A DNA stretch of 64,000 nt, from positions 64,001 through 128,000 of IMG/VR virus record IMGVR_UViG_3300027917_001949. One strand, given 5' to 3'. Source of the stretch: a virus. Position 1 is the first letter of the stretch. Every line of letters starts with the position of its first letter. The translations under genes were made by a program, and so were the position numbers. The notes under the pieces were generated by a model, which did no database searches, was not told the DNA's origin, and worked only from the letters and a program-made list of their open reading frames with translations. Positions 1-53,520 of the stretch are shown here, piece by piece.

Positions 1-78
1 TAAGCCAACATGTTCGAAGAAATTGAAAGCAGGGGTTCACTGCCATGTTAAACCCGATAAGTGATTTCCTTAGCGAAT

Positions 79-154
79 GCTCCCGTAGCTGAATTGGAAC
101 AGCAACTCCCTTCTAAGGAGAAGTATAAGGGTTCGAGTCCCTTCGGGAGTACCA
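79..154 (+). tRNA. trnR: tRNA-Arg(TCT)
   Basis: Acceptor GCTCCCG/CGGGAGT, anticodon loop CT-TCT-AA, GTTCGAGTC T-loop, encoded CCA. Confidence 0.93.
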
Positions 155-376
155 ATGAATACTCAATTAACCGGAGTTCTGATTGAGCACACCAGTCACA
201 ATAACAACATTGACGAGGTTATTGCGGCAATGAAGGGTGTGCGACTTGATGAGTATCTTGGTTACGTTGCACCAAATTATGTGATAACATTTCGAATGGT
301 TTTGTTTCTTTGTAAACATGCTGGTACTAACTGTGATGACTGTGAACTACGTTTCAAATGTTGGACATTAAAATAA
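155..376 (+). CDS. Hypothetical protein with C-terminal Cys module (CDDCELRFKCWT)
   Basis: ATG directly follows tRNA CCA; recurrent motif. Confidence 0.75.
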   Translation: MNTQLTGVLIEHTSHNNNIDEVIAAMKGVRLDEYLGYVAPNYVITFRMVLFLCKHAGTNCDDCELRFKCWTLK

Positions 377-379
377 GAC

Positions 380-408
380 TTGACAAAGTCGAAAAAATAT
401 GATATAAT
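380..408 (+). promoter_or_regulatory. Sigma70-type promoter
   Basis: TTGACA-17 nt-TATAAT with extended -10 TG. Confidence 0.8.
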
Positions 409-419
409 AGAAGGAGAGC

Positions 420-530
420 ATGGAGAAGATTTTAGAAGTATTTTGTAGAGTTTTTGGTCATGACCATACATACAATCATGGTGAACAGATTTGTAGTGTA
501 TGCGGTAATGTCAAAGAAGACGACGAGTAG
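420..530 (+). CDS. Small Cys/His protein (MEKILEVFCRVFGHDH...CSVCG)
   Basis: AGAAGGAG SD upstream; 36 aa ORF read by hand. Confidence 0.55.
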   Translation: MEKILEVFCRVFGHDHTYNHGEQICSVCGNVKEDDE

Positions 531-539
531 TCGTCAAAT

Positions 540-620
540 CTCGCTGTAGTCGGGGGAGTTTCCTAAACTCTTAGCCGTAAGAGGTATCTGTAAATGAGGG
601 TTCAAGTCCCTCCAGCGAGT
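540..620 (+). ncRNA. Atypical tRNA-like RNA (acceptor and T arm, no normal D arm; CCT anticodon-like loop)
   Basis: CTCGCTG/CAGCGAG stem, GAGGG-TTCAAGT-CCCTC T arm, GAGT-TTCCTAA-ACTC hairpin. Confidence 0.6.
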
Positions 621-621
621 C

Positions 622-696
622 GGGGACGAGTACAGCCGATGAAAAGGTATTCAAAGGTAATTGCTGTATGACTTGCAATACTGGTACTCCCCAACA
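622..696 (+). ncRNA. 75-nt GGGGA...TCCCCAACA structured RNA candidate (copy A)
   Basis: Terminal stem GGGG(ACG)AGTAC/GTACTCCCC; same length and termini as 7174-7248. Confidence 0.45.
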
Positions 697-697
697 T

Positions 698-774
698 GCG
701 GGTATGATGCAATTGGCAGACATGCTACGCTTAGAACGTAGATTTTGCAGGTTCGAGTCCTGCTACCCGCACCA
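698..774 (+). tRNA. trnL: tRNA-Leu(TAG), short variable loop
   Basis: GCGGGTA/TACCCGC, CTACG-CTTAGAA-CGTAG, CCA. Confidence 0.92.
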
Positions 775-890
775 TACTAATATACTGAGGGAATCTGAAA
801 AAGATGAGACTGGAAGTTGATGGTTACTATCCCAGTCATGGGTGTCCGAGAAGCGGCAATGGTGGAGCGTCCATAGTAGGTGTATTAGTA
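775..890 (+). ncRNA. Structured intergenic RNA candidate
   Basis: 12-bp closing stem TACTAATATACT/GGTGTATTAGTA, internal GACTGG/CCAGTC hairpin; fills the gap between two tRNAs. Confidence 0.4.
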
Positions 891-894
891 CTAC

Positions 895-970
895 GGTGCA
901 TTGGTGTTAATGGTGAGCATACTACCCTGTCAAGGTTGAGGGAGGGGTTCGTGTCCCCTATGCACCGCCA
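895..970 (+). tRNA. trnD: tRNA-Asp(GTC)
   Basis: GGTGCAT/ATGCACC, loop CT-GTC-AA, CCA. Confidence 0.88.
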
Positions 971-1246
971 ATGAATAAGATTGTCCGTTATCGGATTCTT
1001 TTCAGTGATGAGTTTAAAGAAGGTGTGATACAATGTAGCACTACGCTATGCGGTGACTGTCCGGTCAGGTTTAAATGCTGGACAAGTCGTGTGGTCAGTG
1101 ACTACTTTTCTATCGCTTTCGAGGTAACACCGTATGAGCTTTTCTCGCTACAGTGGTTTAAGTTTGGAGAAAAGTTTAACGGAATGAAATATGAAACGGA
1201 CACTAAAAAACGATTGGTAGAGTGGCGACGTAGCCAAGAGGTTTAA
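971..1246 (+). CDS. Hypothetical Cys-module protein (CGDCPVRFKCWT)
   Basis: ATG right after CCA; 3' end overlaps tRNA-Cys. Confidence 0.75.
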   Translation: MNKIVRYRILFSDEFKEGVIQCSTTLCGDCPVRFKCWTSRVVSDYFSIAFEVTPYELFSLQWFKFGEKFNGMKYETDTKKRLVEWRRSQEV

Positions 1247-1297
1247 GGCGGCTGTCTGCAAAACAGCTTTTCATGGGTTCGAATCCCATCGTCGCCT
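1224..1297 (+). tRNA. trnC: tRNA-Cys(GCA), CCA not encoded
   Basis: GGCGACG/CGTCGCC, U73, GCTGT-CTGCAAA-ACAGC. Confidence 0.93.
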
Positions 1298-1299
1298 CA

Positions 1300-1647
1300 A
1301 TGAGTCCTAACGAATTATGTTTGGAGATTGCGAAAGCAATCCACGTACCATCAAGGTATATAGAGTTTGATACGAGTAAATATATCTATAAGTGTACGTG
1401 CGGTCTCTGTGACGAAGCTTGGACACATGAGATAGTGCGTGAAGCATTTGTTGCAGAAGATGAGGTTGAACAAAGACGGCTTCAAGGTTTGATGTGGTAT
1501 TACCACCGAACTAGAATTGGGGGTAACATATTCATTTTAAGTAATATGATGTGTTATGAACTTGGTCGCAGGTCTGGTTTACTGCAAGCATGTAACGACT
1601 GTACTCATAGGTACAAATGTATCACTAATAGTTTTATTCTGGTGTAG
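1300..1647 (+). CDS. Hypothetical Cys-module protein (CNDCTHRYKCIT)
   Basis: Start reassigned to ATG 1300 just after tRNA-Cys. Confidence 0.7.
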   Translation: MSPNELCLEIAKAIHVPSRYIEFDTSKYIYKCTCGLCDEAWTHEIVREAFVAEDEVEQRRLQGLMWYYHRTRIGGNIFILSNMMCYELGRRSGLLQACNDCTHRYKCITNSFILV

Positions 1648-1712
1648 TACAAAGGTAGTGCACTCGGCTGTTAACCGAGGATATAGTGGTTCGAGTCCAC
1701 TCACCAGAGCCA
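1638..1712 (+). tRNA. trnN: tRNA-Asn(GTT)
   Basis: TCTGGTG/CACCAGA, CTCGG-CTGTTAA-CCGAG, CCA. Confidence 0.93.
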
Positions 1713-1994
1713 ATGTTAATATTTGAAGTAGTACGAGATAGAGAGTTAAAGGTAGCATACGTTAACAGACTTGATTGCGGTGCTCGTGATTGTAATCAAT
1801 GTATCGGACGCTTCATTTGTTTTACCCAAAAAACTGGGTATTTCATGGGTGAGAAAGGTCTTATAATGGAGGAAGAACAGGCTAGACGATTAAGACACCA
1901 TCCATCTATCGAAGTAAACATGTTTTACGATGGGCAGAGACACGCAGTGGGTAAGAAATGGGACGGGGATAACTATGTCCCAGAGTTTGAATAA
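1713..1994 (+). CDS. Hypothetical Cys-module protein (CNQCIGRFICFT)
   Basis: ATG directly after CCA; stop directly before tRNA-Glu. Confidence 0.72.
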   Translation: MLIFEVVRDRELKVAYVNRLDCGARDCNQCIGRFICFTQKTGYFMGEKGLIMEEEQARRLRHHPSIEVNMFYDGQRHAVGKKWDGDNYVPEFE

Positions 1995-2072
1995 GGCAGC
2001 ATGGACTAATCTGGTTATGTCACCACTCTTTCAAAGTGGAGATTACGGGTTCAAATCCCGTTGCTGCTACCA
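1995..2072 (+). tRNA. trnE: tRNA-Glu(TTC)
   Basis: GGCAGCA/TGCTGCT, CCACT-CTTTCAA-AGTGG, CCA. Confidence 0.93.
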
Positions 2073-2081
2073 TGATAGTAT

Positions 2082-2157
2082 AGCGGGGTGGAGCAGTGGT
2101 TAGCTCGACTGGCTCATAACCAGTAGGTCGAGGGTTCAAATCCCTCCCCCGCCACCA
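2082..2157 (+). tRNA. trnM: tRNA-Met(CAT), initiator-like
   Basis: AGCGGGG/CCCCGCC with 1:72 mismatch, loop CT-CAT-AA, CCA. Confidence 0.9.
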
Positions 2158-2532
2158 ATGGAATATTGCACTTATAATAGGATATGTGCTAATAAGATAA
2201 GTTGTTTGGAGTGGACCGATGTCGGTACTTGTGATTATTATGGTCACTACCGACGGGTAACACCACCAGAGAAAACGGTTTATCACATGCGGAGTCAGGA
2301 TTGTCAACACCTTACTCGTACCATCACTCCAGAGCATCAGAAGTTATGCGAAGATTGTGACCATAGATTTTACTGTTGGACTTCTGAATACTGGGGTAAT
2401 GATATGTATGAGCAACATAAGCATTATATCTATGTTAAGAGTACTGCAATAGCACGAGCACGTAATATCGCTCGTCAAGAGAAGGAAGCACGGTTGCTTA
2501 GTATTGAAACATATGGATTGACAAGTGCGTAA
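2158..2532 (+). CDS. Hypothetical Cys-module protein (CEDCDHRFYCWT)
   Basis: ATG directly after CCA. Confidence 0.72.
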   Translation: MEYCTYNRICANKISCLEWTDVGTCDYYGHYRRVTPPEKTVYHMRSQDCQHLTRTITPEHQKLCEDCDHRFYCWTSEYWGNDMYEQHKHYIYVKSTAIARARNIARQEKEARLLSIETYGLTSA

Positions 2533-2827
2533 AGGTATCAAGATACCGAAATTAAGTGTACGTTTATGTAATAACTGCGGCTTAATCATGGTCGTCCAGG
2601 GTGACAGTCAATGGCTTTCGTGTCGTAGATGTCGTTCGAAACACCTGAAATTCTTGTGTTCCACTGAAGAGAATGATATTACAACAGGTATGATGGAAGA
2701 GTGTAATACCTGTAAGCATCGATTTAGATGTATTACTCAACGGTCACGTGCATATGTATACACTCCTATTTATCGAAACTCCGAGGGTGTGAGACGGAAA
2801 ATTGGACAACGTTCAAGACCACGATGA
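2525..2827 (+). CDS. Zn-ribbon plus Cys-module protein (CNTCKHRFRCIT)
   Basis: CNNC/CRRC pairs plus recurrent motif. Confidence 0.65.
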   Translation: MRKGIKIPKLSVRLCNNCGLIMVVQGDSQWLSCRRCRSKHLKFLCSTEENDITTGMMEECNTCKHRFRCITQRSRAYVYTPIYRNSEGVRRKIGQRSRPR

Positions 2828-2833
2828 TTTTAT

Positions 2834-2905
2834 TTCCCCGTAGTCTAATTGGTATGACTGCTGGCTCTGAACCAGTCAATTCAGGTTCGAATCCTGACGG
2901 GGGAA
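2834..2905 (+). tRNA. trnQ: tRNA-Gln(CTG), CCA not encoded
   Basis: TTCCCCG/CGGGGGA, GCTGG-CTCTGAA-CCAGT. Confidence 0.9.
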
Positions 2906-2908
2906 CAG

Positions 2909-3181
2909 ATGAAGCGAGTATTTAAGCTAAATAAAAGCGGTAATAATACTTACATATGTATGGGTGGTGGATGTGATAGATGTTGTATGAGATTTAAGTG
3001 CTTTTCTGTTAGTAAGTATGAGTATTTTGTCGTTGACTGGCATCTGATACACACCAATGAAAGCCCGACAAAATACTTGGAACGGCAGACTCATAGCAGA
3101 GTGTACGTGAAAGGAAGTAAACGATATAACAAAGCATTGTTAGACATGGGAATATCACCATTGTTGTTTACAACCTATTAG
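2909..3181 (+). CDS. Hypothetical Cys-module protein (CDRCCMRFKCFS)
   Basis: Starts 3 nt after tRNA; last base of TAG is base 1 of the next tRNA. Confidence 0.7.
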   Translation: MKRVFKLNKSGNNTYICMGGGCDRCCMRFKCFSVSKYEYFVVDWHLIHTNESPTKYLERQTHSRVYVKGSKRYNKALLDMGISPLLFTTY

Positions 3182-3255
3182 GCGTTGTAACCCAACCAGG
3201 CAGAGGTAACTGGCTAAGAACCAGTGAAGTGCAGGTTCGAATCCTGTCAACGCCA
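3181..3255 (+). tRNA. trnL: tRNA-Leu(AAG), short variable loop, CCA not encoded
   Basis: GGCGTTG/CAACGCC, ACTGG-CTAAGAA-CCAGT, A73. Confidence 0.88.
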
Positions 3256-3256
3256 C

Positions 3257-3487
3257 ATGAGGAATCCAGATAGAATACCTTTAATATTGGAAACCATATA
3301 TGAGATATGGATAGAAAACCCAGATTTAAGGTTGATGCAACTTTTAGGTAATTGTTTTTCTCCGGCAGATAATTACCACCGTGAGGATGACGTATTACTT
3401 GAACGATTGCGACAAGTATATGGTAAGTCGAGTGAACGCTCTACGAGAGAGGAAAGTCCGAACACCGCAGAGCAGGATGCAGGGTAA
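3257..3487 (+). CDS. Conserved phage-type protein (MRNPDRI...NPDLRLMQL; DUF1040/YihD-like)
   Basis: Recognisable N-terminal pattern; 3' end overlaps rnpB. Confidence 0.65.
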   Translation: MRNPDRIPLILETIYEIWIENPDLRLMQLLGNCFSPADNYHREDDVLLERLRQVYGKSSERSTREESPNTAEQDAG

Positions 3488-3820
3488 CACCCTGGCAGAG
3501 TAATCTGACGACTAGTGCAACAGAGACGAGTCAGTAGTTCGAGGTATGGGGTATTGGTAGCTCATATCCCTGTGGAATAGTATGGTTGTTTCTCTATATA
3601 GACACGTCATCGTACTGTGGAGGATGGCTACTTTCAGTAGGACTTACTGGGTGAAACGGGTAAACTCCATCCGGTGCAACCCCAAGCAGAAAGCAAATCG
3701 GCGATTCCGTTTAAGACCTGCTCGGTCAAGCTTTCGGGTCGGGGGCAAGGAGTTTAATGGTAACATTAAACCAAGATAAATGTTCACATAGTACAGAATT
3801 CGGCTTATAGATTTACCATA
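3419..3820 (+). ncRNA. rnpB: RNase P RNA (bacterial type A-like)
   Basis: 11-bp P1 TATGGTAAGTC/GATTTACCATA, GAGGAAAGTCC (3449), AGTGCAACAGAGA, GGGTGAAACGGGTAAACTCC..GGTGCAA, ACAGAATTCGGCTTA (3793). Confidence 0.95.
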
Positions 3821-3824
3821 TTAA

Positions 3825-3900
3825 GTGTCCGAAGTGTAACGGTTGTGCACGGGAGATTGTGGCTCTCTCTGAGTGGGTTCGATTCCCACCGGACACTCCA
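3825..3900 (+). tRNA. trnH: tRNA-His(GTG)
   Basis: GTGTCCG/CGGACAC, loop TT-GTG-GC, CCA. Confidence 0.9.
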
Positions 3901-4124
3901 TGTACCTTATCGCAAATAACTATCGATATTCCTACAGTAGAGAATATCCATACTTTAACGGTGACCTTGTCGTATGTTGGCAAGATATACCATGTGAGGA
4001 ATGTAAAGATAGGTTTTATTGCTTTACCCATGTAACTCACGTAAACAGTCCTTATTTTAGTTTAAGTGATGAACTTAGAAGGAGACCGAGTAGTGCAGAC
4101 TTATCTCAGAAGCAAGATACGTAA
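3900..4124 (+). CDS. Hypothetical Cys-module protein (CEECKDRFYCFT)
   Basis: ATG uses the terminal A of the tRNA-His CCA. Confidence 0.65.
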   Translation: MYLIANNYRYSYSREYPYFNGDLVVCWQDIPCEECKDRFYCFTHVTHVNSPYFSLSDELRRRPSSADLSQKQDT

Positions 4125-4440
4125 TTTAGTAGTTACTGATGTTAACGTCAGTTACGATGGAAGTATTAGTTTAGACCCAGAATTAATGGAAATGGCTGGC
4201 ATTTCCCCGTTCGAACAAGTTCATGTGCTTAATGTTACGAATGGTGAACGGTTCATAACATATGCAATTAAGGGTGAAAAGGATGAGGTTTGTGTGAATG
4301 GTGCGGCAGCTCATTTGGTGGAGTTTAACGATGTATTAATGGTTCTTACCTATGAGATTGTTGACCATGGTGTGGTAAGACATTACGCTAATCACCCAAC
4401 TATAGTCGATGCCGAAGCACGGCACAAGTATTTGATATAA
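4093..4440 (+). CDS. panD: Aspartate 1-decarboxylase (pyruvoyl-dependent)
   Basis: SKI, YDGSIS self-cleavage site, NGERFITYAI, NGAAAH motifs; AAGGAG SD before GTG. Confidence 0.9.
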   Translation: MQTYLRSKIRNLVVTDVNVSYDGSISLDPELMEMAGISPFEQVHVLNVTNGERFITYAIKGEKDEVCVNGAAAHLVEFNDVLMVLTYEIVDHGVVRHYANHPTIVDAEARHKYLI

Positions 4441-4442
4441 TT

Positions 4443-4518
4443 GCGGATGAAATTCATTTGGTTGAATGCTGCGTTGCCAACGCAGATGTAGCGGGTTCGA
4501 ATCCCGCCATCCGCTCCA
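4443..4518 (+). tRNA. trnG: tRNA-Gly(GCC)
   Basis: GCGGATG/CATCCGC, U73, CTGCG-TTGCCAA-CGCAG. Confidence 0.93.
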
Positions 4519-4519
4519 C

Positions 4520-4593
4520 GCTAGAGTGATGCAACTGGCAGACATGTCCGTCTCAAAAACGGGATTTTGAGGGTTCGAATCCCTCCTCTAGCA
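4520..4593 (+). tRNA. trnL: tRNA-Leu(CAA), short variable loop, CCA not encoded
   Basis: GCTAGAG/CTCTAGC, loop CT-CAA-AA. Confidence 0.9.
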
Positions 4594-4665
4594 CATGAAA
4601 ACAAATCGATTAGATTTCGTTTTATTGATATTTTTTATAGCTATGTTTGTAGCATTGGCATTTTT

Positions 4666-4740
4666 GGGAGTGTCGGTTAATGGATAAACCAACGGATTCC
4701 AAACCCGTGACTGAGAGTTCGAATCTTTCCACTCCCGCCA
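4666..4740 (+). tRNA. trnW: tRNA-Trp(CCA)
   Basis: GGGAGTG/CACTCCC, G73, loop TT-CCA-AA. Confidence 0.9.
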
Positions 4741-4748
4741 AATCTATC

Positions 4749-4940
4749 GTGGTAGATACTGGTATACTTGGAATGGTAGGGAACATTGGCAGTTTCACAG
4801 TTAGATGTTTCGGTGACAACTGTGAGGAATGTTTTTTGCGGTTTAAATGCTATACTACTCGTTCTGATGAGATACATATTCATATGGATGAGTGGTTTAA
4901 AGTGAAACCGAAAATCGTTTATACACGAGTAGAGGTATGA
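4749..4940 (+). CDS. Hypothetical Cys-module protein (CEECFLRFKCYT)
   Basis: Recurrent motif; start uncertain, placed after tRNA-Trp. Confidence 0.6.
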   Translation: MVDTGILGMVGNIGSFTVRCFGDNCEECFLRFKCYTTRSDEIHIHMDEWFKVKPKIVYTRVEV

Positions 4941-5245
4941 TGCGTGGTAAAAGATTACGTGATGCGACTATAAAAGCTGAACATACTTTCGAGAAATATC
5001 AGGGCTATAATCCACGGGATGAGAAGCTATTAACGGCTCGTTGGATACCTTGGACAGAGGACGAAATAGCACGTACCGTAGGAATTTTTAGAAAAACTAA
5101 AGTACCATGTTCATGTGTAATGTGTGGTAATCCAAGAAGATACTTTGGAGAATTGACATTCGGAGAGATAAGACAACATTTAGATGCTGATGCACAATGT
5201 GAAGAAGTAGATTGGTATCATAAAAAAGTAAGATGGTCGGTGTAG
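4937..5245 (+). CDS. Conserved phage-type protein (PCSCxMCGNPRR)
   Basis: ATGA-coupled; Cys motif; overlaps tRNA-Leu(TAA) 5' end. Confidence 0.7.
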   Translation: MMRGKRLRDATIKAEHTFEKYQGYNPRDEKLLTARWIPWTEDEIARTVGIFRKTKVPCSCVMCGNPRRYFGELTFGEIRQHLDADAQCEEVDWYHKKVRWSV

Positions 5246-5312
5246 CCCAACTGGCAGAGGTGATAGGCTTAAACCCTATTCAGTGTGAGTTCGAATCTCA
5301 CCACCGACACCA
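5236..5312 (+). tRNA. trnL: tRNA-Leu(TAA), short variable loop
   Basis: GTCGGTG/CACCGAC, ATAGG-CTTAAAC-CCTAT, CCA. Confidence 0.92.
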
Positions 5313-5328
5313 AGCCATATACTGGGTA

Positions 5329-5357
5329 TTGACAAATTGCAGTAACTGTGGTATAAT
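5329..5357 (+). promoter_or_regulatory. Perfect sigma70-type promoter
   Basis: TTGACA-17-TATAAT with TG extension. Confidence 0.85.
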
Positions 5358-5363
5358 GGTATT

Positions 5364-5505
5364 GTAACCTGATGAGGGAGATGCCTAACTAGCCGTAGTG
5401 AAGGGCAGATGCGGGAAAATCTAACCGGTGGTTCTAGGGGATTAGCACCCATGCTAGATAGTTAAAAGTCCATCGTGGAAGGTAGACACCCTGACTCAGG
5501 TTCGC
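5364..5505 (+). ncRNA. Rod-shaped RNA candidate, possibly 6S-like
   Basis: Begins at predicted TSS; AACCTGA/TCAGGTT, AGGG/CCCT, TGCCT/AGGTA, ATCTA/TAGAT, GGTG/CACC nested pairings. Confidence 0.45.
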
Positions 5506-5507
5506 AA

Positions 5508-5584
5508 GCTGACTTAGCTCATTCTGGTAGAGCGACAGGTTGAAGCCCTGTGCGTAGGTGGTTCGATTCCGCCAGTCAGCACCA
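5508..5584 (+). tRNA. trnF: tRNA-Phe(GAA)
   Basis: GCTGACT/AGTCAGC, ACAGG-TTGAAGC-CCTGT, CCA. Confidence 0.93.
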
Positions 5585-5745
5585 TGGAAATTAATTGTTA
5601 TGAATGTCCCTTAACTCATGCGTGTAGTGTAAGAGCACGTAAGGAAGTGGGACGAGTGTGGGATGGTATAATTGAATCTTGGGAACTTAATGATTGTCCA
5701 CTCTACAGATTACTTCAAATAATGGAAGCAATTAAGTATCTTTAA
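5584..5745 (+). CDS. 53-aa Cys protein (CYECPLTHAC)
   Basis: Hand-translated; ATG overlaps CCA; stop 1 nt before tRNA-Tyr. Confidence 0.55.
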   Translation: MEINCYECPLTHACSVRARKEVGRVWDGIIESWELNDCPLYRLLQIMEAIKYL

Positions 5746-5746
5746 T

Positions 5747-5833
5747 GGCGTAGCGGCAACGTGGGAGAGTTGCCCTGGTCTGTAAAACCAGTGTCCTTGG
5801 GCTTAGTAGGTTCGAATCCTATCTGCGCCACCA
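5747..5833 (+). tRNA. trnY: tRNA-Tyr(GTA)
   Basis: GGCGTAG/CTGCGCC, loop CT-GTA-AA, long variable arm, CCA. Confidence 0.92.
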
Positions 5834-5834
5834 A

Positions 5835-6074
5835 ATGTTAAAAGAATTACGTCAAGCTAAAAAATTATACTGTTATCATTGTGATGCATTGTATGAACCA
5901 GTATCATTTTTAACGTGTCCGTCATGCGGTACACCACTTGTTACGTGTTGGTGGGGATTGATTTACGGAATGAATAAGGACGAAATTCATAAATTATGTC
6001 CTGATTGTAAGAATAGATTCTGGTGTTGGACACAGCGACCAGAACTACCCACAATGAGTGGGACATACATGTAA
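5835..6074 (+). CDS. Zn-ribbon plus Cys-module protein (CPDCKNRFWCWT)
   Basis: CYHC..CPSC plus motif; starts 1 nt after CCA. Confidence 0.72.
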   Translation: MLKELRQAKKLYCYHCDALYEPVSFLTCPSCGTPLVTCWWGLIYGMNKDEIHKLCPDCKNRFWCWTQRPELPTMSGTYM

Positions 6075-6077
6075 AAT

Positions 6078-6151
6078 GGGGGTTTAGTTCAGTGGGAGAA
6101 CACTTCCCTTGCAAGGAAGGAAGACGAGTTCGAGTCTCGTAACCTCCACCA
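6078..6151 (+). tRNA. trnA: tRNA-Ala(TGC)
   Basis: GGGGGTT/AACCTCC with G3:U70, loop CT-TGC-AA. Confidence 0.93.
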
Positions 6152-6153
6152 AG

Positions 6154-6648
6154 ATGATTAAACCAAAACTTGGTGAAATTAGAACTGGTAAAGAACTTGG
6201 ATATATATCAAGGAACAAGCATATTGGTCATGCTTGTGAAATATGCGGCAAATTACGTTGGGTTCGTTTGATAGGTGGTAAACCACAGCGAACAAAATGC
6301 GAAGCACATAACGGTGGTAACTATGTAGATAGCAGTGGTAATGCTGCTGGTAATTTTAAACATGGTTTTCGTAATACTAGATTGTATCGAGTATGGAAAG
6401 GGATGAAACAGCGGTGTTATTTACCAACATTTGATTCGTATAAAACGTATGGTGCTCGTGGTATTAAAGTTTGTGACGAGTGGCATGAATTTATTCCATT
6501 CAAAGATTGGGCATTATCACACGGATATTCAGATGACCTATGTATAGACAGAATTGATAATGATGGGAATTATGAGCCGGATAACTGTCAATTTCTTACT
6601 CGAAGTGAAAATAGTCGTAAACAAAAATTAGATAGACTCGGTGTGTAG
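6154..6648 (+). CDS. HNH-family (putative homing) endonuclease
   Basis: RLYRVWKGMKQRC, YGARGIKVCDEW, IDRIDNDGNYEPDNC motifs. Confidence 0.85.
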   Translation: MIKPKLGEIRTGKELGYISRNKHIGHACEICGKLRWVRLIGGKPQRTKCEAHNGGNYVDSSGNAAGNFKHGFRNTRLYRVWKGMKQRCYLPTFDSYKTYGARGIKVCDEWHEFIPFKDWALSHGYSDDLCIDRIDNDGNYEPDNCQFLTRSENSRKQKLDRLGV

Positions 6649-6715
6649 CACAGCTTGGTAGTGCGCCTGATTTGGGGTCAGGAAGTCGTAGGTTCAAATC
6701 CTATCACACCGACCA
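6639..6715 (+). tRNA. trnP: tRNA-Pro(TGG)
   Basis: CGGTGTG/CACACCG, CCTGA-TTTGGGG-TCAGG, CCA. Confidence 0.93.
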
Positions 6716-6811
6716 ATACATATCATCTTGGAAGGATATTGTATTCATTTGGAGTATAAGCTTCAAGATTATATTTAGATACGATGGACGATACCAAGAT
6801 ATTGTCCTCGG

Positions 6812-6888
6812 CAGGGTGTACGTCAGCGGACAAGACTACCTGTTTTGGATACAGGAGGACGGTGGTTCGAATCCACCCACCCTGACCA
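6812..6888 (+). tRNA. trnP: tRNA-Pro(TGG), second divergent copy
   Basis: CAGGGTG/CACCCTG, CCTGT-TTTGGAT-ACAGG, CCA. Confidence 0.85.
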
Positions 6889-6898
6889 GAGGTGAGGA

Positions 6899-7117
6899 AT
6901 GATAAAGCATAGTATTAGTAACGAGATTATTCCAGAAGAGCAGTGGGGTGACATTGGTGGTTATTATACTCTCACTAATGATGAATTAGAAGAGTGGAGA
7001 CATAATCAAACACGTGAACAACGTAAACTTGCGTACTGGGTAAAAACAGTCGCACGTGGAAAACCGCTACTTACACTTGGTACTAATCCCGTTTTAAATG
7101 CCACTGAAGCTCATTAG
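6899..7117 (+). CDS. Hypothetical protein
   Basis: GAGGTGAGG SD; overlaps tRNA-Thr 5' end. Confidence 0.6.
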   Translation: MIKHSISNEIIPEEQWGDIGGYYTLTNDELEEWRHNQTREQRKLAYWVKTVARGKPLLTLGTNPVLNATEAH

Positions 7118-7172
7118 GATGAGCGGTGGTTTTGTAAACCACAGGTAACGGGTTCGAATCCTGTCAGTGGCT
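7100..7172 (+). tRNA. trnT: tRNA-Thr(TGT), CCA not encoded
   Basis: GCCACTG/CAGTGGC, GTGGT-TTTGTAA-ACCAC. Confidence 0.92.
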
Positions 7173-7173
7173 C

Positions 7174-7248
7174 GGGGAGAAAGAGTTATGAAGCATGAGC
7201 GATGCTGTAGCTCATTTTGGCATCATAACTAACAGCCGTTCCCCAACA
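7174..7248 (+). ncRNA. 75-nt GGGGA...TCCCCAACA structured RNA candidate (copy B)
   Basis: GGGGA/TCCCC ends; AGTTATGA/TCATAACT and ATGAGC/GCTCAT nested stems. Confidence 0.45.
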
Positions 7249-7249
7249 T

Positions 7250-7321
7250 GCTACCGAAGCTCAAAGGTTGAGCATCCGCTTCGTAAGCGGGAGATTGTGA
7301 GTTCGAGTCTCACCGGTAGCT
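7250..7321 (+). tRNA. trnT: tRNA-Thr(CGT), CCA not encoded
   Basis: GCTACCG/CGGTAGC, loop TT-CGT-AA. Confidence 0.92.
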
Positions 7322-7322
7322 C

Positions 7323-7769
7323 ATGAAGATACATGAAATAAAAGATAACTATAGTGGTTGGGATGATGTGGCGACCGTCGGTGTCTTTTATTATGATGGG
7401 ACATTCGATAATCTGAAAGACAAGACTCTTGTTATAACTACATTCGGTGAGTTATCGAGTCTCCGATATTATGGATTACCATGTAAAGCAATCTTACGAA
7501 TACGGCACGCACCGAAGCAACCATTTGAAACAACCTTTATTTTAGAAAGTGATAAGGTGGGTAAGGAAATGGCAAGAGACCAAGTTAAATTCGAAACGGA
7601 TTTAGAAACTTTGAAGTCGTTAGCTGACATAGCTGTTGACATCGAAAAGATACAACATGGTGATGTCGAGAACGTAACAGAAGCTGGTTTTGTTAGGGGT
7701 GAAGTTTACGTCAAGTGGACTCGTGGTGATACGGTAGAAATAGCATTACCCGCAAAACCACATGGCTAA
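7323..7769 (+). CDS. Hypothetical protein
   Basis: 148-aa ORF starting 1 nt after tRNA discriminator. Confidence 0.75.
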   Translation: MKIHEIKDNYSGWDDVATVGVFYYDGTFDNLKDKTLVITTFGELSSLRYYGLPCKAILRIRHAPKQPFETTFILESDKVGKEMARDQVKFETDLETLKSLADIAVDIEKIQHGDVENVTEAGFVRGEVYVKWTRGDTVEIALPAKPHG

Positions 7770-7780
7770 ATTTTTATAAT

Positions 7781-7866
7781 GGAAGGTGTCCGGCTGGACG
7801 AGGAAGCTGTCCTGAAAACAGTGGGGCTGTAAAGTCTTAGGGGTTCGAGTCCTCTACCTTCCGCCA
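7781..7866 (+). tRNA. trnS: tRNA-Ser(TGA)
   Basis: GGAAGGT/ACCTTCC, G73, long variable arm, loop CC-TGA-AA. Confidence 0.9.
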
Positions 7867-8082
7867 ATGAGATACGTTGTTACAAGACACGGTAATGTAC
7901 TTGAAGCATTCTGGTGTTATTACACTAAATGTGAGACATGTCCTAGTAGATTTAAGTGTCTCACGAGTGCTATCGCTATAGTTGATGACTGCATAAATTT
8001 AACAGGTAGCGAAGTGCGAAAGAAAATAAATGATATTATAGAGAAGCACGGTTTACATGTTGAACATCTTGCAGAAATGTAA
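7867..8082 (+). CDS. Hypothetical Cys-module protein (CETCPSRFKCLT)
   Basis: Exactly fills the gap between two tRNAs. Confidence 0.75.
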   Translation: MRYVVTRHGNVLEAFWCYYTKCETCPSRFKCLTSAIAIVDDCINLTGSEVRKKINDIIEKHGLHVEHLAEM

Positions 8083-8160
8083 TGCCGAGTAGTCTAAAAC
8101 GGTTTGGACGACTGGCTTTGACCCAGTAGGCTGAAGGTTCGACTCCTTCCTCGGCAACCA
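8083..8160 (+). tRNA. trnQ: tRNA-Gln(TTG)
   Basis: TGCCGAG/CTCGGCA, ACTGG-CTTTGAC-CCAGT, CCA. Confidence 0.93.
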
Positions 8161-8168
8161 GGCAGAAT

Positions 8169-8197
8169 TAACCCCACGCTTTCACGTGGGGTTTTTT
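8169..8197 (+). terminator. Rho-independent terminator at the convergence of the two gene blocks
   Basis: AACCCCACG-CTTTCA-CGTGGGGTT followed by T-run. Confidence 0.85.
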
Positions 8198-8217
8198 AGT
8201 GCCTATTTTTTTTTCAG

Positions 8218-9141
8218 TTATTCAAGAACTACAGCATTATCAATTACGTCAGTAAATGAACCAACGTATACCCAGTTTGCACCGTACCATTCACCGTAGA
8301 TGTCCATATACATCGGACCATCTGCTTGATATACTTCAACAGGATTACTGAAAGTCATCTGCGTAAAGGTAGCATCTAGGTTCATACCATCGATGTTCTT
8401 GATATAAAGTCCGAATGGTCGTGACCCATCAGTCTTGTTGACCGTCGTTCCCTCTGGAATGACAAACTTGTACTTGACACCGTCAACCGTGCCGATTGCC
8501 ACTAATTCCTTGTTCATCCCAGTCTTTCCCCATAGACCGTACTCTACAATACCACAACCGAACGGTATATCAAGTCTGAAATATAGTTCTGGATGGTGTG
8601 CTTGAACATAGAATTCTGTTGTTGCTTCCGCATACACATCACCACTACCGTCAACATCGTCAACCCAGAACCATACCATATCTATGAATGAATATGCCCA
8701 ATAACCGTGTGCATATTGGTTGATAGTATACACACCCTCATCTGTAGGGTTGATTGTATATTCCCAATCGTATGTTAGTGTTACATCTGCGTCAACTGGA
8801 CCAATTAAAGCGGAGTCGCAATCTTCGTCAACTATGTCAACATCTATGACGGCTGCACCGTTAGGATTCAATACCGTTACACCAGCTTCTGCTCCCGCTA
8901 GTGCATTGGCAAACAGAAAGATGTCAAACCAATTGTCAGGGTATACCCCTGCCGATGCTTCGATAATTATTGTTCCGGTTAATGTTACGTCCTCACCTAC
9001 CCAAGGGTCTTCCGATACAACAACTTCACCAATTGTTGCGGTAGCGTCACCCGTTCCTGTTGCTGCCATTGCTGTACCAGCCGGAACAAGTAGCACTATT
9101 GCTGCCAACACCGTGGCAAGAAAGATTTTTACTTTGTTCAT
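8218..9141 (-). CDS. Secreted/surface acidic beta-rich protein
   Basis: Signal peptide MNKVKIFLATVLAAIVLLVPAGTAMA; SD GAGGT. Confidence 0.8.
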   Translation of the reverse strand: MNKVKIFLATVLAAIVLLVPAGTAMAATGTGDATATIGEVVVSEDPWVGEDVTLTGTIIIEASAGVYPDNWFDIFLFANALAGAEAGVTVLNPNGAAVIDVDIVDEDCDSALIGPVDADVTLTYDWEYTINPTDEGVYTINQYAHGYWAYSFIDMVWFWVDDVDGSGDVYAEATTEFYVQAHHPELYFRLDIPFGCGIVEYGLWGKTGMNKELVAIGTVDGVKYKFVIPEGTTVNKTDGSRPFGLYIKNIDGMNLDATFTQMTFSNPVEVYQADGPMYMDIYGEWYGANWVYVGSFTDVIDNAVVLE

Positions 9142-9467: not shown

Positions 9468-10826
9468 TTATCCAACTCGTTCACGTAGATACTCCCTCGC
9501 TTTCGCAAATGCACCTTGTCTGTCGTCTTTATCCAGCTTGCCATCAATCACGAGGTTGGTCAGGTAGTTCTTTATATTACCAACAACTTCTCCAGGTTTT
9601 AGACCAAACTCTTTCATGATTTCGTTACCATCAATTGGAGAGGTCATGGTGTCTGGTTGTTCCGCTAGGCATTCGGTAACCATTCTGGTAAGAACGTTCA
9701 TGAATTTGTAACGTGGATTCTTTGATGAACGGATGTCACATTTTACTAAGTCCATCAGTAGTCCAATGTTGTTCTCACCAACCTTGCGAACCAGACGCAT
9801 GATGATTCTCTTTTTGATTTTACCACGTACCACTTCTTTTTGAAGTACGATAGGAGTCATGTGGTACTTAATCAGATGACATACACTGTTGATGACCTCG
9901 TTGTTAAAGCGAAGTCTACGCAGTATCTTTCTTGCCTTTCGTGCACCAACGTTGTGGTGTGAGTAGAAGTGGACACCATCATCGTCCTCGACCTTAGTTT
10001 CCGGTTTACCAATATCGTGTAAGATACAGGCAAGACGGAATATCAGGTTTCGGTTACCGTGGTCAACTTTAGTACCTTTGTATAGGACAAGTAGTGAGTG
10101 CTCGTAGGCATCCTTAATGTGGTTCTTTCCCTGTTGGATGTTACGCAGTTGCATAAATTCTGGTGAGATGTAGTCCATCAGACCAGTTTGGCACAGCTTT
10201 CTCCAACCGAAAGAAGCTCTACGTGATAGCAGGATTCGACTTACCTCGTCACGTACTCTTTCTCTAGAGATAACTTGCAGTCGTTCTGGATGTTGAATAG
10301 TGACGTCGAACTTGAAGTTCAGTTCGCAGGCAAAACGGACTGCACGAAGCATTCGTAGAGGGTCTTCGTCGAATCTGTCTTCACTACCTACAACTCTGAT
10401 ACGTTTGGCATTGAGGTCTTCAACACCACCAAATGGGTCGATAATTGCACCAGTCAGCGGGTTGCGTGCCAGAGCGTTGATGGTGAAGTCTCTACGAGCT
10501 AGGTCGTTCTCAAGTGAGTAACCGAACATGACAGTTGGTTTACGTGAGTTTGAACGGTATACTTCGCTTCTGTAAGTAGTTATCTCAACGGTATGACCGT
10601 TGGCATTGAGACCTATAGTACCAAATTCCTCACCCATAGTGTATAGAGAACCGAAGTCATTTATGATTTCTTTTATCTCGTCAGGGCGGGCATTAGTAGC
10701 TAGGTCAATGTCATGTGATTCTCTACCAAGTAGTGAGTCACGCACACGACCACCGACTTCGAAAAGTTCAAAACCTTTCTCGTTGAACTTCACTGCTATT
10801 CTGTTGATTAGAGTTTCCTCGTTCAT
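9468..10826 (-). CDS. cca: CCA-adding enzyme (class II tRNA nucleotidyltransferase) with HD domain
   Basis: VGGRVRD, DIDLAT, RRDFTINALA, EDPLRMLRAVRF, LHDIGKP. Confidence 0.93.
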   Translation of the reverse strand: MNEETLINRIAVKFNEKGFELFEVGGRVRDSLLGRESHDIDLATNARPDEIKEIINDFGSLYTMGEEFGTIGLNANGHTVEITTYRSEVYRSNSRKPTVMFGYSLENDLARRDFTINALARNPLTGAIIDPFGGVEDLNAKRIRVVGSEDRFDEDPLRMLRAVRFACELNFKFDVTIQHPERLQVISRERVRDEVSRILLSRRASFGWRKLCQTGLMDYISPEFMQLRNIQQGKNHIKDAYEHSLLVLYKGTKVDHGNRNLIFRLACILHDIGKPETKVEDDDGVHFYSHHNVGARKARKILRRLRFNNEVINSVCHLIKYHMTPIVLQKEVVRGKIKKRIIMRLVRKVGENNIGLLMDLVKCDIRSSKNPRYKFMNVLTRMVTECLAEQPDTMTSPIDGNEIMKEFGLKPGEVVGNIKNYLTNLVIDGKLDKDDRQGAFAKAREYLRERVG

Positions 10827-52341: not shown

Positions 52342-53520
52342 TTAGTCACCGCCTGCCTTAAAGTTGTATACTGGTTTCATCATAAACTCAATATCAACGG
52401 TCTCACCGATAGCATCGACTATCATGTCTTTATCCTTGTACGCCATCGGTGACTCGTCGATTGTATCCAGTGTTGCGGTAGTAGTATAAATACCGTCCAT
52501 CTGAGCCGTAAACTCATCCATTGATAGGGTTGCTTTTGCTTTCTTTCTCGATAGGATTCTTCCAGCCCCATGCGGTGCGGAGTAATTCCATTTCTGATTG
52601 CCCTTACCAATACATACCGCAACACCGTCACGCATATTGAATGGTATAACTAACCGTTCACCATCATGTGCCGCAACTGCACCCTTACGGATGATTTTAT
52701 CTTTGAAATTGATGTAATTGTGAACTGTATCGAAGGCATTGTCCGGTGATATAATCTTACCACCTGTCTGAGAAGTCGCTACACCGAAATAATTGAGTAT
52801 AATCTCAAGCATGATACCACGATTTAGTGTGGCGTAGTGTTGTGCTATTCGCATTGCCTGTAGATATTGATAACCACCATGTTCCATTGGTAAATACTCA
52901 AGATTATGATAAGCTGATGCCCCTACGAACATTTCTTTCAATAATTCTTTAGCTTTATTTTGGTAGTAATTTGCAATCTTTAACCCGAAATTTCTGCTAC
53001 CGGAATGAACCAGAAGCCAGTACGTACCATCCTCTGCTTCGTCAATCTCGATGAAATGGTTACCACCACCAAGAGTGCCAAGCGAACCTTTAACCCTGCT
53101 TGACTCTTGTTTTGTCTCATTTGCATAGTACATAATCTCACTATCATCCGGTATGTATGAATCTGGTCGATAGCCGTTTATCATTCGCTGTGAATAATTT
53201 CTTATACTGAATCCACTTGGTATATTAGCCTTGATAAAGTTGTCAAGTTCCTCGAAATCGATTGAGTGAACTGGTAACGGACATGACAACACACCACAGC
53301 CAATATCTACTCCTACTACGTTCGGTATAACATAGTTATTCATCTTTGCTGTGAAACCAATGACCGCACCAGCACCAGCATGACAGTCTGGCATGATTGC
53401 TATGTACGTTTTAGCAAATGCCGGATGATTCAAGAATGAGTATATTTGTTTTACCGTTTCCTCATCTATCTCATCAATCATGACATTTGCCGAGTTGTAT
53501 TTACCCTTGTATGTTATCAT
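52342..53520 (-). CDS. rtcB: RtcB RNA ligase
   Basis: MPDCHAG, VGVDIGCG, GTLGGGNHFIE, HSGSR, HNY, RKGA, PHGAGR, DESP.AYK. Confidence 0.96.
   Translation of the reverse strand: MITYKGKYNSANVMIDEIDEETVKQIYSFLNHPAFAKTYIAIMPDCHAGAGAVIGFTAKMNNYVIPNVVGVDIGCGVLSCPLPVHSIDFEELDNFIKANIPSGFSIRNYSQRMINGYRPDSYIPDDSEIMYYANETKQESSRVKGSLGTLGGGNHFIEIDEAEDGTYWLLVHSGSRNFGLKIANYYQNKAKELLKEMFVGASAYHNLEYLPMEHGGYQYLQAMRIAQHYATLNRGIMLEIILNYFGVATSQTGGKIISPDNAFDTVHNYINFKDKIIRKGAVAAHDGERLVIPFNMRDGVAVCIGKGNQKWNYSAPHGAGRILSRKKAKATLSMDEFTAQMDGIYTTTATLDTIDESPMAYKDKDMIVDAIGETVDIEFMMKPVYNFKAGGD

Follow-up and report, generated by a model that had tools for sequence, protein, structure and literature searches.

The window analyzed here is a stretch of 64,000 nucleotides (nt), bases 64001-128000 of the IMG/VR phage record IMGVR_UViG_3300027917_001949 (152,753 bp, 41.5% G+C, 99% complete according to CheckV), and it begins within an array of tRNA genes interleaved with small open reading frames (ORFs), a set of which start at or within a few nucleotides of the 3′ end of the preceding tRNA. 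When ARAGORN and Rfam were combined, the + strand of positions 79-8160 was found to contain 23 tRNA genes. ARAGORN alone returned 21 + strand tRNAs, spanning 79 to 7322, and missed tRNA-Ser(tga) at 7781-7866 and tRNA-Gln(ttg) at 8083-8160, which were added through Rfam and reading by eye; in Rfam the former gives a weak tRNA-Sec-like match that falls under the gathering score of that family. The array extends upstream of the window, and the whole genome carries 34 tRNA genes (genome positions 55405-72160), all on the + strand. Six related contigs were found through the CCA-adding enzyme of this phage, with 64-75% identity, and where single genomes have to be told apart they are given by their handles (G001, G003 and so on).

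A preliminary description of this DNA had listed 14 junctions at which an ATG follows a tRNA 3′ end with no room for a Shine-Dalgarno (SD) sequence outside the folded tRNA, and had proposed that endonucleolytic tRNA 3′ processing liberates leaderless mRNAs at these sites. The discriminator of every tRNA was set by acceptor-stem pairing, offsets (+n) were counted from the discriminator, and each listed junction was checked by script. We found that all 14 junctions exist, with the ATG at +2 to +6: it directly follows CCA at 155, 971, 1713, 2158 and 7867, shares A76 at 3900 and 5584, and elsewhere lies at +2 (3257, 4595 and 7323), +3 (1300), +4 (2909), +5 (5835) or +6 (6154). Thirteen of the 14 ORFs that open in this way are 53-164 amino acids (aa) long, and four further junction ORFs are located upstream of the window, after tRNA-Met (+1, 184 aa), tRNA-Val (+6), tRNA-Glu(ctc) (+3) and tRNA-Arg(acg) (+3). 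In the genome as a whole, 17 of 34 tRNAs are followed by an ATG at +1 to +6 that opens an ORF of at least 40 aa. The same arrangement occurs at 4.1% of random positions of the same DNA, an excess of about twelvefold (binomial P = 3e-15). Exceptions to the pattern within the window are an ORF after tRNA-Pro that has its own SD (Table 1) and a Cys-module ORF after tRNA-Trp that has no junction ATG, its first start being the GTG at 4749.

We scored an SD as present when the anti-SD duplex energy was -4.5 kcal/mol or stronger. By this measure, an SD precedes 12% of 66 junction ORFs, which equals the background at random positions (12%), compared with 60% of 162 non-junction genes in the genome and 54% of the array ORFs that start at +8 to +30 after a tRNA. 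The lack of an SD at the junctions is thus confirmed. Leaderless initiation prefers AUG, and 65 of the 66 junction starts are ATG, so that the junction ORFs have both the missing SD and the start codon preference expected of leaderless mRNAs. Within the window, clear SDs precede the ORF at 6899, a 36-aa ORF at 420 and the PanD-like gene (start 4093), whose normal SD sets it apart from the junction genes of the same array. An SD concealed within the 3′ half of the tRNA was considered separately and ruled out, the tRNA ends with and without a junction ORF being alike (Mann-Whitney P = 0.22).

A scan of the + strand from 1 to 8400 returned just two consensus promoters and one terminator, and no promoter-like sites at the junctions, including any from which transcription would begin at the ATG. 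With so few promoters, a single terminator and no promoter at the junctions, the junction genes are therefore predicted to lie within long tRNA-mRNA units. Since no promoter starts transcription at a junction ATG, any 5′ end at the AUG must come from processing.

Table 1. Features of the tRNA array and associated genes; positions are those of the window and offsets are counted from the tRNA discriminator.
Feature	Position	Strand	Evidence or remark
Window portion of the tRNA array	79..8160	+	ARAGORN, Rfam, junction table
Junction ORF, 73 aa, Cys module	155..376	+	ATG directly after CCA of tRNA-Arg(tct) 79-154
Junction ORF, 91 aa, Cys module	971..1246	+	ATG directly after tRNA-Asp CCA; stop 23 nt inside tRNA-Cys
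Junction ORF, 115 aa, Cys module	1300..1647	+	ATG +3 of CCA-less tRNA-Cys; stop is U8-A9-G10 of tRNA-Asn
Junction ORF, 93 aa, Cys module	1713..1994	+	ATG directly after tRNA-Asn CCA; stop abuts base 1 of tRNA-Glu
Junction ORF, 124 aa, Cys module	2158..2532	+	ATG directly after tRNA-Met CCA
Junction ORF, 90 aa, Cys module	2909..3181	+	ATG +4 of CCA-less tRNA-Gln(ctg); orthologue behind the same tRNA in relative G001
Junction ORF, 76 aa	3257..3487	+	ATG +2 of tRNA-Leu(aag); weak DUF1040 likeness only; final 68 nt overlap RNase P RNA
Junction ORF, 74 aa, Cys module	3900..4124	+	ATG shares A76 of tRNA-His
Junction ORF, 30 aa, hydrophobic, doubtful	4595..4687	+	ATG +2 of tRNA-Leu(caa); overlaps tRNA-Trp by 22 nt
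Junction ORF, 53 aa	5584..5745	+	ATG shares A76 of tRNA-Phe; stop 1 nt before tRNA-Tyr
Junction ORF, 79 aa, Cys module	5835..6074	+	ATG +5 of tRNA-Tyr; G003 orthologue after tRNA-Tyr at +3
Junction ORF, 164 aa, HNH homing-endonuclease-like	6154..6648	+	ATG +6 of tRNA-Ala; PHROG 374, E 1e-41; stop is U8-A9-G10 of tRNA-Pro
Junction ORF, 148 aa	7323..7769	+	ATG +2 of CCA-less tRNA-Thr(cgt); same CATG junction in G001 and G003
Junction ORF, 71 aa, Cys module	7867..8082	+	ATG directly after tRNA-Ser(tga) CCA; stop abuts tRNA-Gln(ttg)
SD-led exception, 72-aa ORF after tRNA-Pro	6899..7117	+	Own SD (GAGGTGAGGA) in 10-nt spacer
Sigma-70-type consensus promoter	380..408	+	12/12 matches, TG extension; upstream of SD-led 36-aa ORF 420-530
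Second consensus promoter	5329..5357	+	12/12 matches, TG extension; before a 150-nt stretch and tRNA-Phe
Intrinsic terminator closing the array	8170..8193 or 8170..8200	+	
Bacterial class A RNase P RNA gene	3420..3823	+	Rfam RF00010, 196 bits, E 1e-62; ends 1 nt before tRNA-His
CCA-adding enzyme gene with HD domain	9468..10826	-	Pfam PF01743, PF01966, PF12627; adjoins array
RtcB RNA ligase gene	52342-53520	-	Pfam E 3e-67
PanD-like aspartate 1-decarboxylase gene	4093..4440	+	Pfam PF02261, E 1e-33; normal SD (GAAGGAG), GTG start

The junction ORFs of this phage and its relatives were compared as a set of 72 from six genomes. Orthologous pairs differ mostly at third codon positions, with a ratio of nonsynonymous to synonymous substitution rates (dN/dS) of about 0.05-0.25 where dS was measurable, and conservation in the alignments starts at residue 1, which is the junction Met. 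One family, whose members begin MKIFILDD, is found after tRNA-Met at +3 in one phage and after tRNA-Asn at +6 in another, and its receiver domain begins at residue 2. One gene abuts tRNA-Met here (+1) and lacks an SD, but it is SD-led in four relatives; in G001 (at +21 from the tRNA), G003 and G004 the orthologues share its N-terminus and a strong SD precedes them (duplex -7.7 to -9.7 kcal/mol). Other junction genes have orthologues elsewhere that start via a stop-start overlap. Because the same gene is flush here and SD-led in relatives, the flush ATG replaces an ordinary initiation signal. These alignments lead us to conclude that the junction ORFs are genuine genes, that purifying selection acts on them and that the junction Met is their first residue. 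Searches of Pfam and PHROGs with the junction proteins gave nothing besides HNH endonuclease and weak zinc-ribbon matches, and a word-based homologue search with the 91-aa ORF (971..1246) returned itself alone.

The junction genes had been characterized at the outset as mostly Cys-module genes. The module (C-x2-C-x2-[RK]-[FY]-x-C-x-[TS]) is indeed present, in the window ORFs that start at 155, 971, 1300, 1713, 2158, 2525, 2909, 3900, 4749, 5835 and 7867, but it is not specific to junctions: six-frame translation of the genome contains 47 copies, 16 of them in the array, compared with none in a reversed-sequence null, and 29 of the 72 junction ORFs of the clade carry it. The module matches no Pfam or PHROG family. 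As it is widespread outside the array, the junction mode is not tied to that protein family.

We then compared tRNA-to-ATG distances with those of other phage tRNA arrays, counting tRNAs that have 150 nt or more of room downstream. Of such tRNAs, 16 of 22 are of the junction type here, 15/28, 12/25, 8/20 and 13/19 in four relatives, and 4/12 in the seventh contig. Among 80 viral IMG/VR contigs picked by a generic T-arm-plus-CCA pattern, only 6 of 223 tRNAs are of this type, with starts at +8 to +35 after 67 of the 223, and distant phages that also encode a CCA-adding enzyme gave 1 of 16. Phage T5 (NC_005859) has a similar tRNA region, where about 24 tRNAs are strung along one strand together with small ORFs, HNH endonucleases and stable RNAs, and where several ORFs likewise stop within the next tRNA. 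ORF starts in T5, however, lie at +17 to +38, which leaves room for an SD, whereas in this clade they lie at +1 to +7 at half of the tRNAs. The layout is therefore conserved in the clade and rare elsewhere, and the objection that such spacing is typical of any compact phage tRNA array is refuted by these counts and by the T5 spacing. Within the clade the spacers turn over fast, the same tRNA preceding different ORFs across phages and the same ORF following different tRNAs.

The offsets constrain where a tRNA 3′ cut could fall. In five non-redundant genomes the 66 junction ATGs lie at +1 (1 case), +2 (8), +3 (28), +4 (6), +5 (9), +6 (13) and +7 (1). A cut after A76 would destroy the 37 start codons (56%) at +1 to +3, so that the cut must fall after N73, C74 or C75. 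The sequence layout thus fits endonucleolytic tRNA 3′ processing as proposed, but not a cut after CCA, since these 37 junctions need a cut inside or before it. A tRNA cut in this way would need CCA completion, and a CCA-adding enzyme gene does adjoin the array, both here and in 6 of 6 relatives, the relatives themselves having been retrieved through this protein. In keeping with such completion, a C follows the discriminator in 151 of 153 tRNA genes of G000, G001, G003, G004 and G005, although the full CCA is encoded in only 105; C74 seems to be kept even where CA has been lost.

The array also contains a gene for RNase P RNA, in which the P4 core and GGU motif are retained. This RNA is full-length in three genomes (here, in G001 and in G003) and degenerate or weak-scoring in G005. 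In G001, tRNA-Leu(aag) and tRNA-His stand 3 nt to either side of it, so tRNA processing would release the RNase P RNA as well. Our literature search found no description of RNase P RNA in phages.

Liberation of leaderless mRNAs by tRNA 3′ processing is the best available explanation for this arrangement, and on the strength of sequence and comparison we consider it somewhat probable. In the scheme that we infer, the array would be transcribed as a few long tRNA-mRNA precursors, and an endonuclease responsible for tRNA 3′-end formation, in all likelihood an RNase Z-type enzyme of the host, would cut either at the discriminator or immediately behind it (N73 or C74). The RNA beyond the cut would then start 0-5 nt ahead of its AUG and would be translated by the leaderless pathway, for which no SD site is needed. 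The CCA-adding enzyme encoded beside the array would finish the tRNAs with incomplete CCA, and RNase P, the RNA subunit of which is phage-encoded in three phages, would cut at the next tRNA.

It is important to note that several observations weigh against this scheme. In 17 of 65 junction ORFs the stop codon falls within the following tRNA, and seven of the 17 use the U8-A9-G10 of that tRNA as a TAG stop (in the window at 1645-1647, 5243-5245 and 6646-6648); the stop lies 0-12 nt before the next tRNA in 11 of the 65 and further upstream in 37. For the 17, an RNase P cut would give a non-stop mRNA, so translation must precede or compete with the cut. Clean two-sided punctuation of the mitochondrial kind, in which RNase P generates mRNA 3′ ends with a complete or completable stop, accordingly does not hold here. 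With offsets that range from +1 to +7, cutting at one fixed site would produce leaders of 0-6 nt, and in Escherichia coli leaderless translation is reduced by additional 5′ bases. A pathway of the E. coli type, with an RNase E cut downstream and exonuclease trimming, would destroy these start codons. In addition, the complete genome G004 lacks the RNase P RNA, which makes this RNA accessory and not required for the layout, and no RNase Z-like (Lactamase_B_2) or RnpA gene was found in the phages, so that host enzymes would do the cutting.

Some of these points would suit translation of the uncut tRNA-mRNA precursor by SD-independent internal initiation, through an A-rich coding start or protein S1 and with the folded tRNA tolerated on the 30S platform, in which case tRNA processing would either play no role in translation or compete with it. 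Where a stop lies inside the next tRNA, the 3′ side must be translated before processing; no single cut yields a perfect leaderless end across the range of offsets; and second codons are often A-rich (AAT, AAA, AAG, GAA). We nevertheless think this unlikely, because the ATG lies 2-6 nt from a stable acceptor stem, where the 30S subunit needs a single strand, and because the phage otherwise relies on SDs. Moreover, away from a tRNA the same gene is preceded by a strong SD or starts via a stop-start overlap, suggesting that internal initiation does not suffice without such help.

The junctions might also be a by-product of compaction and of small, partly selfish cassettes (the HNH endonuclease and the Cys-module genes) that insert and delete beside tRNAs, with expression of the junction genes weak or incidental. 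Such an origin would agree with the re-pairing of ORFs and tRNAs across phages, with the HNH endonuclease in the array, as in T5, and with the genome-wide expansion of the Cys-module family, yet it seems distinctly improbable to us, given that purifying selection on the junction ORFs requires their translation. Compaction also leaves the near-exclusive use of ATG unexplained, the equally compact T5 retains its SD spacers, and the ORFs move independently of the tRNAs yet end flush with them, pointing to selection on the junction. We give very little credence to the suggestion that the junction ATGs are coincidental and that the true starts are internal codons with a cryptic SD. The ORF at 4595 is just 30 aa, the one at 3257 runs into the RNase P RNA, and at four tRNAs of this genome an ATG follows CCA without a real ORF, all of which would fit wrong starts, but the conservation of orthologues from residue 1, the receiver domain from residue 2 and the excess of junctions over chance argue for the junction Met.

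Processing of tRNA 3′ ends as a source of mRNA has a well-known counterpart in animal mitochondria, where, according to the Ojala-Montoya-Attardi model, transcripts are reportedly punctuated by tRNAs through RNase P and RNase Z/ELAC2. As there, the phage tRNA and protein genes alternate on one strand (the 34 tRNAs and the ORFs are all +) and stand flush with one another in what would be long transcripts, start codons lie near the upstream tRNA 3′ end without a ribosome-binding site (at 17 of 34 tRNAs, with offsets of +1 to +6), and some stops abut the next tRNA or are completed at it. The TAG at 3179-3181 that ends the ORF starting at 2909, for instance, shares only its G with base 1 of tRNA-Leu(aag), so that an RNase P cut would leave UA, an incomplete stop of the type found in mitochondria. 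The phage differs in being a bacterial virus whose other genes use SDs, in that about half of its tRNAs are involved, and in that one in four junction ORFs ends within the following tRNA. In addition, many phage ATGs overlap CCA, whereas mitochondrial tRNA genes encode no CCA. For the mitochondrial system, participation of ELAC2 in tRNA processing has been described (PMC11996679).

The mRNA of lambda cI is leaderless. Such mRNAs are common in mycobacteria (PMC4633059), and those of bacteria have been reviewed (PMC9031893). The junction genes would share with these an AUG at or near the 5′ end, the lack of an SD and a strong preference for ATG. The known cases are primary transcripts whose first bases are the start codon, whereas here the 5′ end would be made by processing and would bear a 5′ monophosphate. 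With regard to the cut itself, CCA-encoding tRNAs of Streptomyces coelicolor are cut between the two Cs, with repair presumed, and in E. coli tRNA 3′ cuts fall a few nt downstream (PMC4681348). The C74/C75 cut of S. coelicolor is of the kind that the CATG and CCATG junctions need, although it is a host process of a high-GC actinomycete, unlinked to downstream genes, and this phage has 41.5% G+C. The phage arrangement would combine mitochondrial tRNA punctuation with leaderless translation; we found no description of tRNA-flush leaderless genes in phages in the literature.

Taken further, the data would describe a clade of large phages with mitochondria-like expression, in which tRNA excision, with the cut within or ahead of the encoded CCA, would create leaderless 5′ ends, the phage enzyme would rebuild the CCA and a phage-encoded RNase P ribozyme would speed release in some members. 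The making of tRNAs and that of a set of small early proteins would then be mechanically coupled. We regard this fuller picture as possible, if a little short of probable. Were it true, it would account for the expression of dozens of small genes that lie within phage tRNA arrays and lack promoters and ribosome-binding sites, would show why phages encode CCA-adding enzymes, and would add a processing-made class of leaderless mRNA in bacteria. Confirmation by RNA data would establish tRNA punctuation outside organelles. The clade provides natural test cases, as the same gene is tRNA-flush in one phage and SD-led in another. For annotation, gene callers that expect an SD or forbid tRNA overlap will miss or misplace these starts.

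Several other features of the phage were recorded. The RtcB RNA ligase and the CCA-adding/HD enzyme together make up a tRNA repair kit for a phage, and the PanD gene inside the tRNA array is an unusual auxiliary gene for a phage. A megablast search with the array gave a tRNA-Met in Caulobacter phages as its sole match, and tblastn with the VWA/metallopeptidase protein and the DNA polymerase gave nothing over about 31% identity. The stretch of about 150 nt at 5358-5507 (+), which runs from the perfect promoter to tRNA-Phe, has no ORF, no Rfam match and a fold z-score of -0.6, not above shuffles. Two ORF-free spacers, at 548-697 and 7174-7249 (+), form closed folds in which a 5′ GGGGAG is paired with a 3′ CUCCCC; AACAU comes next, with a tRNA immediately behind it. 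They have fold z-scores of -2.3 and -4.3, respectively, and the spacer at 548-697 also contains a T-arm-like hairpin. We suggest that these two spacers may be tRNA-like or other stable small RNAs.

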